Positions 8,517 to 13,289 of a stretch of DNA of 64,000 bases are shown piece after piece. Made by a program: the position numbers and the translations under genes. Source of the stretch: Escherichia phage vB_EcoM-ZQ3; sequence record MW630116.1; one strand, given 5' to 3'. Each line of letters starts with the position of its first letter. The stretch's first letter is position 1. The notes under the pieces were generated by a model, which saw nothing but the letters and a program-made list of their open reading frames with translations, was not told where the DNA came from and made no database searches.

Positions 8517-9509
8517 ATGTTACCTGTCATCAGAAAACTTATTTCTCCAAAAGAACTGGCTGAGATTATTCCTTTGTCGGAAGCTTACGCATCACAAGTG
8601 GCTTCTCATCGCGAACAAGTTAATTCGATTATGAACGGTGAAGACCCACGCAAACTTATTGTTGTAGGTCCTTGTTCAATTCATGACCCTATTGCTGCTG
8701 TTGAATACGGCAAACGTCTGGCTGAACTTCAAACTCGTCTTCCTAATGTTCTGTTAGTGATGCGCGTTTATTTTGAAAAGCCTCGAACTACCGTAGGTTG
8801 GAAAGGTCTTGTAAATGATCCATATCTTGACGGAAGTTTTGATATGAACCACGGTCTTATAGTTGCACGAACATTGTGTCGTAAACTTCTACGTATGGGA
8901 CTTCCATTAGCAACTGAAGTATTAGACCCATTCACGATTAAGTATCTTTCTGGTATTTTCTCATGGGTTGCTATTGGCGCCCGTACGACTGAAAGTCAGA
9001 CACATCGTGAAATTGCTTCAGGTCTACCGATGTGCGTAGGCTTCAAGAACGCAACCAATGGTTCTATTAAAGTAGCTACAGACGCGATGTATAGTGCCGC
9101 CTGGCCTCATCGGTATATGGGTATGGACGTCGATGGTACTGTAGGCATTGTTGAAGCTGAAGGTAATCAGAATACGCATATCGTATTGCGTGGCGGGACT
9201 AACGGCCCGAACTATCATTCTTCTGATATTCAAGAAGCTTCTAACAAAGCAAGTGCATTAGGTCTGAATCATTATGTAATGGTTGACTGTAGCCATGCAA
9301 ACGCTGATGGGTATTATAGCAATCAAATTGGTATTGGTAAAAATTTAGCAGCTAATGATTTGGTCAAAGGAATTATGATAGAATCATTCCTACATGAAGG
9401 AAATCAAAAAATTTCTGATAATATGTCCTATGGCGTTTCCGTTACCGATGCGTGCATCGGTTGGGAACAAACTAAAGAGCTGTTAACTTATATTAATAAG
9501 GTTCAATAA
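8517..9509 (+). CDS. 3-deoxy-D-arabino-heptulosonate-7-phosphate (DAHP) synthase, class I (AroG/AroF/AroH-like)
   Basis: 330 aa; family signatures GPCSIHD, VMRVYFEKPRTTVGWKGL, WVAIGARTTESQTHRE, HIVLRGG, IESFLHEGNQ, TDACIGWE, corresponding to the metal-ligand Cys/His/Glu/Asp of E. coli AroG; SD TAAGGA; stop overlaps cd start. Confidence 0.85.
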   Translation: MLPVIRKLISPKELAEIIPLSEAYASQVASHREQVNSIMNGEDPRKLIVVGPCSIHDPIAAVEYGKRLAELQTRLPNVLLVMRVYFEKPRTTVGWKGLVNDPYLDGSFDMNHGLIVARTLCRKLLRMGLPLATEVLDPFTIKYLSGIFSWVAIGARTTESQTHREIASGLPMCVGFKNATNGSIKVATDAMYSAAWPHRYMGMDVDGTVGIVEAEGNQNTHIVLRGGTNGPNYHSSDIQEASNKASALGLNHYVMVDCSHANADGYYSNQIGIGKNLAANDLVKGIMIESFLHEGNQKISDNMSYGVSVTDACIGWEQTKELLTYINKVQ

Positions 9510-10090
9510 TGAAAGCTAGCACATATCTTCAAATTGCTTATTTGATTTCTCAAGAATCAAAATGTTGTTCATGGAAAGTTGGTGCCGTCATTGAAAAAGA
9601 TGGACGCATTATCTCTACTGGATATAATGGCTCACCCGCAGGTGGCGTTAACTGTTGTGAACATGCATCCGAAAATGGTTGGTTGAAGAATAAACCAAGC
9701 CCGGTCATCGTTGCTGGACATAAAGAAGGCACTACAGCATTTGGACGGGCAGATAATTTTGTTTTGGCTAAAGAACATCGGGCCGCTCATAGTGCATGGT
9801 CTGCCAATAACGAAATCCATGCGGAACTGAATGCAATTTTGTTTGCAGCTCGTAAAGGTAATTCTATTGAAGGTGCTACGTTATATACTACGCTTTCTCC
9901 ATGTCCTGATTGCACTAAAGCTATTACGCAGTCAGGTATTAAAAAGGTTGTATATGCAGAATTATATGACCGATCTCCTGAAAATTGGGCAGACATTCTT
10001 AAACAAGCTGGTATTGAAGTAATTCAGTACTCTCGTAATAATCTTCGTTCTCTGAATTGGGAACAAATCCGAAACTTTTGTGGTGAATAA
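9509..10090 (+). CDS. cd: dCMP deaminase
   Basis: 193 aa = T4 Cd length; zinc-binding deaminase motifs HAELNAI and PCPDC. Confidence 0.9.
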   Translation: MKASTYLQIAYLISQESKCCSWKVGAVIEKDGRIISTGYNGSPAGGVNCCEHASENGWLKNKPSPVIVAGHKEGTTAFGRADNFVLAKEHRAAHSAWSANNEIHAELNAILFAARKGNSIEGATLYTTLSPCPDCTKAITQSGIKKVVYAELYDRSPENWADILKQAGIEVIQYSRNNLRSLNWEQIRNFCGE

Positions 10091-10091
10091 T

Positions 10092-10388
10092 ATGATTTTA
10101 ACTGAACAAGAAACTATGGTTCTTCGTGAACGTATTAAAACTATTCTGTCTGTAGGCGTTCATTGTGTTGTATTTGAAAAGGCTAACGGTGATGTTCGTA
10201 CGATGTTTGCCTCCCGTGATGAACTTGAAGTCAAATACGAAAATAACAATCCGGCAACAGAAGTTCGTTATGAACCTCGTGAATCAGTTCGAGCATTCGA
10301 TACCAAGTTAGGCCAGTGGCGTTCTTTCCGCCTTGATAAAGTAATTTCGGTTGATGGTACTCCGGTAGAACGTTTGCTTCTTATGTAA
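10092..10388 (+). CDS. hypothetical protein (31.x position)
   Basis: 98 aa from ATG 10092 (ORF-track start 10080 is GTG inside the cd stop region). Confidence 0.4.
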   Translation: MILTEQETMVLRERIKTILSVGVHCVVFEKANGDVRTMFASRDELEVKYENNNPATEVRYEPRESVRAFDTKLGQWRSFRLDKVISVDGTPVERLLLM

Positions 10389-10390
10389 TA

Positions 10391-10415
10391 TGCTTTACGA
10401 ATAGTATGGTATTAT
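10391..10415 (+). promoter_or_regulatory. candidate MotA-dependent middle promoter
   Basis: MotA-box-like TGCTTTA, 12-nt spacer, TATTAT, ~30 nt upstream of gene 31. Confidence 0.45.
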
Positions 10416-10445
10416 TAATCTATCGTCAAACAACAAGGAAATAAG

Positions 10446-10778
10446 ATGTCTGAAGTACAACTCCCAATTCGTGCTATTGGTGAATATGTCATTCTGGTTT
10501 CTGAACCTGCTCAAGCAGGTGATGAAGAAGTTACCGAATCAGGACTTGTGATTGGTAAACGTGTTCAAGGTGAAGTTCCTGAACTATGCGTAGTTCATTC
10601 TGTAGGTCCTGATGTTCCTGAAGGTTTTGTTGAAGTAGGTGATTTGACTCCACTACCAGTTGGACAAATTCGAAATGTTCCACATCCATTTGTGGCTTTG
10701 GGACTTAAACAACCTAAAGAAATTAAACAGAAATTCGTAACATGCCACTATAAAGCTATTCCGTGTCTTTATAAGTGA
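10446..10778 (+). CDS. 31: co-chaperonin GroES analogue for capsid folding (gp31)
   Basis: 110 aa (T4 gp31 111 aa); position between cd and rIII. Confidence 0.85.
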
Positions 10779-10786
10779 TATAAATA
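10779..10786 (+). promoter_or_regulatory. candidate late promoter
   Basis: TATAAATA core directly after the gene 31 stop, upstream of rIII. Confidence 0.4.
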
Positions 10787-10902
10787 ACTATATGAAGAGA
10801 ACACTCTTCTAAGCGGTAGCCTACAACTGAGAGACTTGTCGAAAGAAGGTGAAATTCAGACGAACGTGGCTACTAAATATTATCTCGAATTGAGAATTTA
10901 AA

Positions 10903-11151
10903 ATGATTAAACAATTACAACACGCTCTTGAACTGCAACGCAACGCATGGAATAACGGTCACGAAAACTATGGCGCATCTATTGATGTTGAAGCCGAAGC
11001 TCTTGAAATCCTGCGTTATTTCAAACATCTGAACCCAGCACAGGCCGCACTGGCTACTGAACTGGAAGCAAAAGATGAACTGAAATATGCTAAGCCTTTG
11101 GCTTCAGCAGCTCGTAAAGCAGTACGTCATTTTATTATTACCCTGAAGTAA
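10903..11151 (+). CDS. rIII: lysis-inhibition accessory protein rIII
   Basis: 82 aa = T4 RIII length; position after gene 31. Confidence 0.75.
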   Translation: MIKQLQHALELQRNAWNNGHENYGASIDVEAEALEILRYFKHLNPAQAALATELEAKDELKYAKPLASAARKAVRHFIITLK

Positions 11152-11516
11152 GTTAAATCGAGGAGCCGTCGAACTGTCTGATTAATGATTTGCGAATCAT
11201 TATAGTTTTAAGACCCCGGCAGTTTTACGGTGTACCTCTTGAATGTTATTCTTATAGCGGCAAGTGCATGCTACCCCGAGGTGATGGCCAATCGGGAGTA
11301 CGCCTCAAGGCCTATATATCCATCAGTATATATCTTATCCTCGAGAAATCGAACCCGGAACCTTTAAGCTAACGGTGTGCAACAGATAAGAGCTATAAGG
11401 TATGATGACGGGTTTATGGTTATCCTGTCGTTAAATATCCGAAAACCTATGTTCCCCTTGAGGGCTTGCGCAGGCAATGTCAATAAGTCCTGCATTTTCA
11501 TTAAAGAGAATTTATA

Positions 11517-11696
11517 ATGGCAAAACAAGCTAAAGCAAAGAAAGCAGTTGAAAAGAAAGTTGATGGTACCTCTAAACGCGCTGGATACAAGCGTGGGTCG
11601 AACTCTCGTATTAATCAAACAGTTGAGAAGATCATGCGCAGAGCACGTGCAGTTCTTCGAGATGATGCTTCTCGTTTTGGAAAGGTTGTTGCATAA
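11517..11696 (+). CDS. small basic protein (30.9 position), not in ORF track
   Basis: 59 aa (MAKQAKAKKAVEKK...), weak SD AAAGAG; followed immediately by a strong terminator. Confidence 0.4.
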   Translation: MAKQAKAKKAVEKKVDGTSKRAGYKRGSNSRINQTVEKIMRRARAVLRDDASRFGKVVA

Positions 11697-11700
11697 TTTT

Positions 11701-11724
11701 AGGGAGACTTCGGTCTCCCTTTTG
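11701..11724 (+). terminator. rho-independent terminator
   Basis: GGGAGAC-UUCG-GUCUCCC hairpin followed by TTTTGTG. Confidence 0.75.
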
Positions 11725-11756
11725 TGCGTTTAGGGCAGAAAAAGTTTAAAAAAGAT

Positions 11757-11785
11757 GTTTACTCTCCTGTAGGATGTGTTACTAT
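11757..11785 (+). promoter_or_regulatory. T4-type early promoter
   Basis: GTTTAC, 17-nt spacer, TGTGTTACTAT. Confidence 0.7.
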
Positions 11786-11827
11786 AGACTTGTACCACCT
11801 AATCAATAAAAACAACCGGAGAATAAA

Positions 11828-12199
11828 ATGAACACTATCAATTTAAATGCTACAATTAAATGCCGTGACCATGATGGATATAAATCTCAAGTTGTTAACG
11901 AGTTACAGTGGATGGTTCGTTCAGTTCAAGGTGATGTGGTTTATTGTACAACTCCTGATGGCCCTTCAGACGATTTTTGTTATCATATCGAAATTGAAAA
12001 CTTTTTCACTGGTGAAATTTACCGTCTGAATTCTACAGTTTATGGTTGTATTCGTTCTAAAACTTACGAAGATGAAGAGACTGGTTACTCTGAAGATGTT
12101 GTATGGTACGAAAATGCCAGAAATCGTGCAGAGTCATTAATCGAGAAGATTAAAGCAAAAGGTGTTATTGATTCAGCTAAGTGGACAAAAATCAAATAA
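11828..12199 (+). CDS. hypothetical protein (30.x region)
   Basis: 123 aa ORF, SD GGAGAA. Confidence 0.45.
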   Translation: MNTINLNATIKCRDHDGYKSQVVNELQWMVRSVQGDVVYCTTPDGPSDDFCYHIEIENFFTGEIYRLNSTVYGCIRSKTYEDEETGYSEDVVWYENARNRAESLIEKIKAKGVIDSAKWTKIK

Positions 12200-12203
12200 A
12201 AAT

Positions 12204-12232
12204 GTTTACTTTGGTACAGGTTATGTTATTAT
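12204..12232 (+). promoter_or_regulatory. T4-type early promoter
   Basis: GTTTAC, 17-nt spacer, TATGTTATTAT. Confidence 0.65.
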
Positions 12233-12273
12233 AGACCTGTACCAACAAACAACTTAAACATCTGGAGAATAAA

Positions 12274-12639
12274 ATGAACTACACCAACTTCGAACGCAAA
12301 TATGTTTCTAACGGTATCGCTGGTTCTATCGATATGGTTTGTTTGTGGAAGCATAAAAATGGTTCAGTATGTGAAATTGAGCAGTGCATGGCTCCTAATT
12401 ATGTTTATATGCGATTTGAAAATGGCATCACGGTTTCAATCACGATGGAAGGTTCCAACTTCAAAATTGCATTAGATGACGATTTCCGTCAACGTGATTT
12501 AGGTACTCATCCTTGCTGGAACGGTGTTAATCGTAAACTTCTGGTTAAAACTTGGATTCGTCATATCCTGAGTAACCGAGCTAAACCTGAACACCTGGAA
12601 GCAATCTTTGATGTAGTTCTGAACGAATTCGACATCTAA
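12274..12639 (+). CDS. hypothetical protein (30.x region)
   Basis: 121 aa ORF, SD GGAGAA. Confidence 0.45.
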   Translation: MNYTNFERKYVSNGIAGSIDMVCLWKHKNGSVCEIEQCMAPNYVYMRFENGITVSITMEGSNFKIALDDDFRQRDLGTHPCWNGVNRKLLVKTWIRHILSNRAKPEHLEAIFDVVLNEFDI

Positions 12640-12674
12640 TTTAACTGGGAGCTTCGGCTCCCACTGAGGAAATT

Positions 12675-13289
12675 ATGTTTAAAGTTAATACTTTTTATAA
12701 AATGAATTTTAAAAATGGGGATATTACTCCACGCCTTAAAAACATGTTCTCATATGACCTTATCGAGCCTTTTGAAGTTTTAGAAGTTACTGATGCCGGC
12801 TCGGTTTGTGAAATTAGAACTTCTGAAGGTAAAATTTATCAGGCAGGTGTTGGTAAATTCAGTAATTGTTTTACTTTAATATTCTCGACCGATTTAGATG
12901 AGCATTTTATTGAATGTCCTAACCCTAAGGTCCACGAAGTTCCACATCAAGAAACTAAGAAAAATGGCCCGCACGAATATACGAAGGTTGAAACTCCTCA
13001 CGGCGTGATGTGGCGTCATAACTCTCCTTTTGGAAGTAAAGGAACATTTGCTCAACCGTCTAAACCGTATGACGATGAAAAATACATCGTCGTCTTTTTA
13101 TCTGAACAAGGTACTCAAGACCGTGGATGCCAGCGAAGTGGTTTACTAAGTGAACTTGAAGCTCATAACCAAGCACGTGAATTCGTTGAGAAAAATCCTG
13201 GTTCTGAAGCTCTAGTCATGAAAGCAATTACTCAATATATCACTGCTCAACCTGTTGTTCATCCGGTAGAAATTAATTTCGTTAAGTAG
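12675..13289 (+). CDS. hypothetical protein (30.x region)
   Basis: 204 aa ORF, SD GAGGAAA; preceded by GGGAGC-UUCG-GCUCCC hairpin at 12650-12665. Confidence 0.45.
   Translation: MFKVNTFYKMNFKNGDITPRLKNMFSYDLIEPFEVLEVTDAGSVCEIRTSEGKIYQAGVGKFSNCFTLIFSTDLDEHFIECPNPKVHEVPHQETKKNGPHEYTKVETPHGVMWRHNSPFGSKGTFAQPSKPYDDEKYIVVFLSEQGTQDRGCQRSGLLSELEAHNQAREFVEKNPGSEALVMKAITQYITAQPVVHPVEINFVK

Follow-up and report, generated by a model that had tools for sequence, protein, structure and literature searches.

The 365-bp gap between rIII and a 30.9-like open reading frame (ORF) in Escherichia phage vB_EcoM-ZQ3 contains, at positions 11251-11399 of the 64,000-nucleotide stretch that we analysed (hereafter the window), what is in all probability a genuine structured RNA, under selection, encoded on the sense strand and belonging to a new, uncatalogued family. 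From sequence comparisons we also incline, with much less assurance, to the fuller statement that this would be a new family of accessory structured RNAs that share a transcript with rIII and 30.9 and act as an independent, partner-binding module; taken separately, the independent, partner-binding accessory mechanism is put forward tentatively, with more doubt than confidence. A structured small RNA had been among the candidates of the initial annotation of this gap, which had also suggested folding it and comparing it with related T-even phages. That comparison brought out a conserved covarying structure at 11251-11399. The proposal of a structured RNA is thus strongly supported, but the RNA is defined by helices and invariant strands that had not been noted, and neither by the AT-rich hairpin nor by the 8-mer pairing described there; the feature that stands far beyond chance, a 149-nt covarying multi-helix element, had been missed.

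The window phage is an RB69-like (Mosigvirus) T-even whose flanking genes are 97% RB69-like. Genes in this region follow the order cd, 31.1-like, 31, rIII, the 365-bp gap, the 30.9-like ORF and 30.8, all on the + strand. Conceptual translations of the gap (11152-11516) gave no Pfam or PHROG match, and the view that no credible gene lies between rIII and the 30.9-like ORF holds; the accompanying statement that no ORF starts with ATG does not, given a 34-codon ORF at 11268-11372, which does lack a Shine-Dalgarno sequence as had been said. The gap is a mosaic of modules, in which two flanks (11152-~11246 and ~11400-11516) that occur in T4, RB69 and most T-evens enclose a middle segment (11251-11399), here called the core, placed in the rIII 3′ untranslated region. 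The features of the region are:

10903..11151, + strand: rIII (82 aa), the upstream gene, from the ORF list and annotated as rIII in matching records including RB69 and T4
11160..11243, + strand: long imperfect hairpin of 25 pairs in the rIII 3′-UTR, from the single-sequence fold and from RNAalifold on 13 distinct sequences
11251..11399, + strand: core, a self-contained structured RNA of ~149 nt, from block presence/absence, conservation and covariation
11268..11372, + strand: 34-codon ATG ORF inside the core, not a gene (truncated in many members, no family match)
11407..11429, + strand: 'module A' hairpin (GACGGG / CCUGUC), followed by GUUAAAUA, from flank comparison
11454..11502, + strand: 30.9 leader modules, directly before the 30.9 ribosome-binding site
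11517..11696, + strand: 30.9-like ORF (59 aa, basic), the downstream gene, from the ORF list and a phrog_1427 match (E=2e-31)
11702-11726, after the 30.9-like ORF: hairpin with U-run, GGGAGAC-UUCG-GUCUCCC-UUUU, by sequence

Weak terminator-type Rfam alignments were obtained at 11698-11730, and the transcription unit probably ends at the 11702-11726 hairpin and U-run, which a simple terminator scan missed. On the 3′ side of this hairpin, GTTTAC-N17-TACTAT at 11757-11785 fits the published PST/T4 PeSL terminator-promoter cassette. A separate observation concerns a 330-aa ORF at 8517-9509, directly upstream of the dCMP deaminase gene, that resembles DAHP synthase (phospho-2-dehydro-3-deoxyheptonate aldolase) and would be an auxiliary gene of the aromatic-amino-acid pathway. 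The phage EcS1 record annotates a DAHP synthase gene at the equivalent position, and no such ORF was found in the T4 record region inspected.

The core was delimited by its distribution. BLAST of the 365-bp gap against 50,697 phage records matched 993 of them (994 places), with at least 80% of the query covered in only 179. T4, T2, RB14 and most other T-evens matched only query positions ~1-99 and ~250-365, and Klebsiella, Enterobacter, Kosakonia and Salmonella phages only ~105-241, at 91-96% identity. Used alone as query, the middle segment matched 410 records, 395 of them near full length, so that carriers make up about 40% (~410 of ~990) of the flank-sharing records. T4 lacks exactly the middle segment in the alignment. 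RB69 and its closest relatives also lack the core, and RB69 has ~50 unrelated bases (ATTTTGTACTATCACGCGTCAGAAAAAGGTTATCTGTCTAAGTCGTGGTTG; RB69 locus ~1346-1400) where the window has the 149-nt RNA, which points to a replacement hotspot rather than a simple insertion or deletion. Conversely, the middle segment stands directly after rIII in Jiaodavirus, Kanagawavirus and Moonvirus, where the flanking DNA is unalignable. Across genera core identity was 91-100%: it was 91-95% in Jiaodavirus, Moonvirus, Karamvirus and Kanagawavirus, whose neighbouring DNA does not align, and the window core is 100% identical to copies in many T-even records, including Escherichia-, Shigella- and Yersinia-named phages. 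All carriers, JS98, SP18, vB_EcoM_JB75 and Klebsiella JD18 among them, are T4-like phages of Enterobacterales, with Escherichia, Shigella, Klebsiella, Enterobacter, Yersinia, Salmonella, Citrobacter, Serratia, Raoultella, Erwinia and Edwardsiella as hosts, and the orientation is always sense to rIII or to uvsY, the second locus described below. Taken together, this pattern fits gain and loss of the core by recombination in conserved intergenic flanks.

Among close relatives, presence of the core was all-or-none. In IMG/VR it occupied 10 of 29 rIII loci and 2 of 11 Pseudotevenvirus-type uvsY loci, with no intermediate or weak scores. A covariance model, R1, built from the 31-sequence alignment described below, matched the window once in its 64 kb, at 11247-11403 with 183 bits, in keeping with the one copy per genome given by BLAST (994 places in 993 records), and found nothing in the T4 rIII locus, the RB69 rIII locus or T4 1-50 kb. 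In Klebsiella phage vB_KpnM_17-11 the model gave two partial matches on opposite strands (locus coordinates 1490-1609 on the + strand, 91 bits, and 1653-1791 on the - strand, 66 bits), which points to an inversion or rearrangement inside the element or to an assembly artefact. No core match was found in 5,426 E. coli genomes. Three bacterial genomes carried the invariant 18-mer with all other motifs missing, so that these matches were attributed to chance and a bacterial origin was discarded. Likewise, the extra matches of a degenerate pattern (GGCAAGNGCATG...ACCCGGANCC) in IMG/VR (loci L031-L037) proved to be GC-rich coding sequence and not members of the family.

The fold of the core was derived from 31 distinct copies taken from GenBank phages, IMG/VR and metagenomes (29 in an earlier version of the alignment). 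RNAalifold combined with explicit pair counting gave 41 pairs arranged in six main helices, with 97.8% of the cells paired across the 31 sequences. Both sides had changed at 23 of the 41 pairs, compared with 10.6±2.0 in column shuffles, a control that overstates the significance because most members are closely related and only ~8-10 lineages are really distinct; the argument is therefore carried by the independent lineages and by a second control, in which sliding the 3′ partners by 1-3 columns left only 28-44% paired. The minimum-energy fold of the window copy alone gave the same helices, which are, all on the + strand:

11251-11258 / 11392-11399: P1, the closing stem, CUUAUAGC with GCUAUAAG; 5 of 5 scored pairs changed on both sides
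11259..11312: P1b arm (GGC 11259-61 / GCC 11310-12), predicted; encloses the invariant AAG.GCAU strand and P2
11270-11282 / 11287-11303: P2, a long bulged hairpin; 5-6 pairs changed on both sides, G·U frequent
11313..11332: P3 hairpin (UAUAUAU / loop / GUAUAUA); the stem covaries
11333..11391: P5 (UCUUAUC 11333-39 / GAUAAGA 11385-91); 5 of 6 pairs changed on both sides
11341-44 / 11349-52: P4, with a GAAA loop, inside P5; 3 of 3 pairs changed on both sides
11353-57 / 11373-78: P6 (ACCCG / CGG.GU), inside P5; one compensatory exchange

The sequence of P1 differs in nearly every lineage while its complementarity is kept, the variants being CUUAUAGC/GCUAUAAG, UAAAC/GUUUA, ACAC/GUGU, CAUAC/GUAUG, UUAG/CUAA and GUAG/CUAC. 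In P3, AU pairs are exchanged for GC or UA (alignment columns 74-76/85-87), and the loop sequence is not conserved. P6 is invariant save in the uvsY-locus copies of CYPEBC003 and Kp_GWPR59, where a C-G pair becomes U-A. P1b is only a prediction, and comparison is uninformative about it because its GGC/GCC strands are invariant. P5 also encloses the invariant strand GCUAAC.GUGUGCAAC.G. Since P1, P1b/P2, P3 and P5 join without linker bases, the closing stem and the three arms form a four-way junction in this fold. About 55 positions are invariant, clustered in GGCAAG.GCAUG, CCU..GGCCUAU, AACC.GGA.CC and GCUAAC.GUGUGCAAC.G, and those that are unpaired form two clusters, one in the P1b/P2 internal loop and the other in the P4/P6 multiloop within P5. 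The pairs also tell which strand is folded: G·U cells number dozens (for example 10, 9, 26 and 9 sequences at four pairs) against ~3 A·C cells, which identifies it as the + strand, the sense of rIII and 30.9. A candidate UGCAU/GUGCA pseudoknot was contradicted on inspection of the alignment by an uncompensated U-to-G change at column 19, and pairwise column covariation, computed to look for pseudoknots, was swamped by the phylogenetic signal of the few divergent lineages.

Two other complementarities had been described in the gap before. The 8-bp hairpin exists one base away from where it had been placed (TAATGATT at 11183-11190, TGCG, AATCATTA at 11195-11202, then TAGTTTT); it forms the tip of the longer 11160-11243 hairpin and is conserved, two of its covarying pairs being among the 5 (of 25 in the longer hairpin) that changed on both sides in the 13 sequences. 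The longer hairpin is present in T4 and RB69 and is thus independent of the core; it is possibly a weak terminator or a processing site. On the other hand, the long-range pairing of CCTCAAGG with CCTTGAGG did not survive the comparison. Its partners lie at 11303-11310, 10 bases from the place first given, and at 11456-11463. The segment holds three inverted 8-mer pairs against a mean of 1.4 in the other 365-bp tiles of the window, and since at least three occur in 15% of the tiles, such a match is unremarkable. In addition, T4 keeps the 3′ partner without the 5′ partner, and the variants of the latter (CCTCATGG, CCTTCTGG and CCTAATGG) show no compensating change.

Around the core, the flanking modules are shuffled. 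The 30.9 leader comprises a small GC hairpin, CCCCUUGAGGG (which contains CCTTGAGG), followed by a hairpin whose sequence varies (GCAGG 11470-74 / CCUGC 11489-93) and then by a U-rich run; all the genera compared have these modules, whether the core is there or not. Module A shows one A-U to G-C exchange by eye. The core precedes module A in the window and in Moonvirus, follows it in Jiaodavirus, PS2 and PEi26, and stands directly after the small GC hairpin in EcL8g and EcS1. More generally, the rIII-30.9 region of T4-like phages consists of short conserved modules whose mutual order depends on the genus (window 11400-11502; locus L001 2383-2500 and 2636-2760; flanks of L007, L008 and L057). 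In Moonvirus P1 begins 5 bases after the rIII stop codon, too close for a promoter to fit in between, so that transcription must enter the element from rIII. Scanning and inspection of the upstream sequence found no sigma-70, MotA-box or TATAAATA motif consistent across lineages. Promoters of all three classes, early, middle and late, drive rIII in T4 (PMC9409239). With no consistent promoter of its own and rIII read from three promoter classes, the core would be made throughout infection.

A second locus carries the RNA in a different setting. Divergent copies (116-121 bits) were found in Yersinia phage JC221, Enterobacter phage CYPEBC003 and the Pseudotevenvirus Kp_GWPR59, in sense orientation after uvsY.-2-like genes, where the uvsY operon ends on its 3′ side; a bidirectional terminator follows ~170 nt further on, and no same-strand gene lies between the copy and the terminator. 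The small GC hairpin GUACCCnnnnGGGGCUUG accompanies the RNA at this locus too. In phages without the RNA, the uvsY locus holds a different ORF-free block of ~130 nt (…GGACAAACUUACGGAUAGCCUAACGCCGAGGUGAGAACGUUAACUUUUGUCCGAGGCGGG…; L092 ~2160-2300, alignment columns ~340-500), which in JC221 lies upstream of the RNA copy (L010 ~1285-1365). The GGACAAACUUACGGAUAGCCUAACGCCGAGGUGAGAACGUUAACUUUUGUCCGAGGCGGG block is internally complementary and is a candidate for another structured RNA.

The core was compared with known RNA families. A covariance scan, as the initial annotation had advised, gave no match in the interval: none of the 4227 models of Rfam 15, which cover riboswitches, ribozymes, sRNAs, group I introns and RNase P among others, matched within 11152-11516, either at gathering thresholds (whole window) or at E<=10 (10000-13000), and the most divergent members had no match at E<=5. 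ARAGORN predicted no tRNA or tmRNA gene anywhere in the window. T4 rnaC and rnaD (species 1 and 2 RNAs) are small T-even non-coding RNAs (~120-140 nt), of function not known, that are excised from longer transcripts; unlike the core they sit in the tRNA cluster, T4 has both of them while lacking the core, and the T4 tRNA/rnaC/rnaD region gave nothing with R1 at E<=10. The closest likeness in kind is to orphan structured-RNA motifs of the Weinberg/Breaker type, mostly in Rfam, that share with the core an intergenic block conserved beyond its surroundings, a compensatory multi-helix fold, invariant junction nucleotides and a function that is not known; the core differs in falling outside all the Rfam 15 models and in its restriction to T4-like Enterobacterales phages. 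Exact-sequence and keyword literature searches found no description of the element, and the main text of a large phage-RNA catalogue does not mention T4-like phages (PMC10690425).

Could the conservation have a cause other than the RNA itself? A decayed gene or a small protein gene is scarcely credible. It would be either the 34-codon ORF, annotated as a 34-aa 'hypothetical protein' in several GenBank records, or the frame (phase of 11152) that had been described as open save for a single TAA and is indeed open from ~11212 to 11516 save for one TAA, at 11365-11367 rather than at 11369-11371. The latter frame crosses the boundary of the insertion missing in T4 and RB69. In the former, the ATG is part of the invariant GCAUG, yet the frame is cut to 3-11 codons in many members; the common GGCC-to-GGCU variant, which makes a G·U pair in P2, also creates a stop codon, and the substitutions mostly change the amino acid, the compensatory changes of P3 among them. 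It matched neither PHROG nor Pfam, and neither a conserved frame nor a synonymous bias was found, so the suggestion of a pseudogene was dropped. An element acting as DNA, be it a PeSL-like recombination cassette, a miniature transposon or a signal for replication or packaging, is very improbable. It would account for a block inserted or deleted in a hyperplastic intergenic region, for the inverted termini of the window copy (CTTATAGC/GCTATAAG) and for identical cores in phages of different genera; however, the 'terminal repeats' differ by lineage and remain complementary, which indicates selection for pairing and not transposon ends, and the asymmetry between G·U and A·C designates one single strand, of coding sense. 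In a PeSL, a stem-loop is followed by an early promoter of sigma-70-like type (TTTACW-N17-TAYWAT) and then by the next gene's ribosome-binding site (PMC4122927). Such cassettes of T4-type phages (PMC2839356, PMC4122927) resemble the core in occupying a plastic intergenic region with modules shuffled by recombination, whereas the core is ~3 times longer, has a complex fold rather than a stem-loop plus promoter, and contains neither correctly spaced promoter hexamers nor a promoter-plus-stem-loop of the published type (PMC4122927); no promoter-like site was found on the + strand within 11152-11516. Covarying termini, a single copy per genome, no target-site duplication at the T4 junction and no copies in bacteria or in E. 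coli genomes likewise disagree with a miniature transposon. The DNA-level cassette and the decayed gene are both effectively excluded, which leaves a structured RNA whose role has to be weighed.

As a cis-acting RNA, the core might be a riboswitch or another leader controlling 30.9 and the 30.x genes, which we regard as quite improbable. Some riboswitch aptamers, such as the yybP-ykoY Mn2+ class, are four-way junctions with docking conserved loops, and the core resembles them in size, in its linker-free junction, in its variable helices and in the invariant nucleotides of its internal loops; like an aptamer, it has a conserved covarying part with invariant junction nucleotides, and at the rIII locus it always lies upstream of 30.9, with a hairpin and a U-rich run before the 30.9 ribosome-binding site. 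In contrast, it has no match to an Rfam riboswitch, no conserved expression platform and no consistent downstream gene: T4 and ~60% of relatives express 30.9 without the core, spacing and order relative to the putative platform differ by genus, and copies lie in 3′-UTRs, those at the uvsY locus with no same-strand gene downstream, rather than in a constant 5′-UTR place before related genes. The regulatory leader for the 30.x genes that had been proposed for the gap fails on the same module order and uvsY-locus copies. We give equally little credence to a passive cis element, a stable fold that would shield the upstream mRNA (rIII, uvsY operon) from 3′ exonucleases or would serve as an RNase entry or blocking site. 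Its position agrees with such a role, being 3′ of the last or penultimate gene of the transcription unit at both loci and among other hairpins, but a simple stabiliser does not need ~55 invariant nucleotides and 91-95% cross-genus identity, and neighbouring hairpins already provide structure, also in phages without the core. A self-cleaving ribozyme, or another processing element that would cut the transcript of rIII-30.9 or of the uvsY operon at one fixed place, is improbable as well. Small ribozymes typically are compact junctions with concentrated invariant nucleotides and occur sporadically, and the core, with its compact multi-helix junction, its ~55 invariant nucleotides concentrated in two loops and its sporadic, context-independent occurrence in phage intergenic regions, would fit that description. 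In its four-way-junction form, the hairpin ribozyme has two arms with conserved internal loops, which the core recalls. No Rfam 15 ribozyme family matched even at E<=10, however, and on inspection the core motifs of hammerhead, twister, pistol, hatchet and hairpin ribozymes could not be placed on the covarying helices; one copy per genome also speaks against a ribozyme. From the hairpin ribozyme in particular the core differs in loop size and sequence, in lacking any sequence or covariance-model similarity and in carrying its conserved loops on non-adjacent arms.

The reading that we prefer is that of an accessory structured RNA that acts on its own. Judging from its position, the core would be transcribed within the rIII-30.9 message (or the uvsY-operon transcript) and may be trimmed from the mRNA at the AU-rich flanks of P1. 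It would then act as an independent module and not as a switch for the neighbouring gene, with the variable helices serving as a scaffold and the two invariant loop clusters as a putative specific binding or active site. The putative partner would be conserved across Enterobacterales or T-even phages; proteins, other RNAs and small molecules are all conceivable, and the sequence itself favours no particular protein or ligand. Because the core is dispensable and patchy among close relatives, its role would be accessory, and host take-over or counter-defence fits better than core replication. A bolder version, which is unlikely and is offered as a conjecture, sees in the core a functional RNA of a new class whose specific binding pocket or active site would make it a metabolite or second-messenger aptamer, or a ribozyme. 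Its accessory use to T-even phages would be in counter-defence or host takeover, for instance as an RNA 'sponge' or a decoy for an Enterobacterales-conserved target, and it would have gone unnoticed as T4 and RB69 lack it. When the E. coli rrnH operon was searched for sequences that the core might pair with as an antisense RNA or might mimic, no convincing complementarity to rRNA or the adjoining tRNAs emerged. The best match, 11 nt of perfect complementarity (ACGCCUCAAGG) between window 11300-11310 and 16S rRNA ~840-850, was within the range of shuffled controls and in a lineage-variable part of the element, and is probably due to chance; a 9-nt match to the T-arm of tRNA-Asp also involves a non-conserved part.

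Few genomes in biology have been studied as well as those of T-even phages; Rfam nevertheless lacks this element. Many phages of Klebsiella, Enterobacter, Shigella and E. coli that serve in therapy work are among its carriers. Strong selection on the core is indicated by its near-identity from genus to genus, by its complex, covarying fold and by its being present in some close relatives and absent from others, and the existence of RB69-like and T4-like phages with and without it, that is, natural isogenic pairs, makes its function directly testable. If the proposed accessory role is correct, host take-over or counter-defence in this model system would gain an RNA-based layer, through a phage RNA bound to a conserved factor of host or phage; a fold that proved to be a new aptamer or ribozyme would be interesting in its own way.
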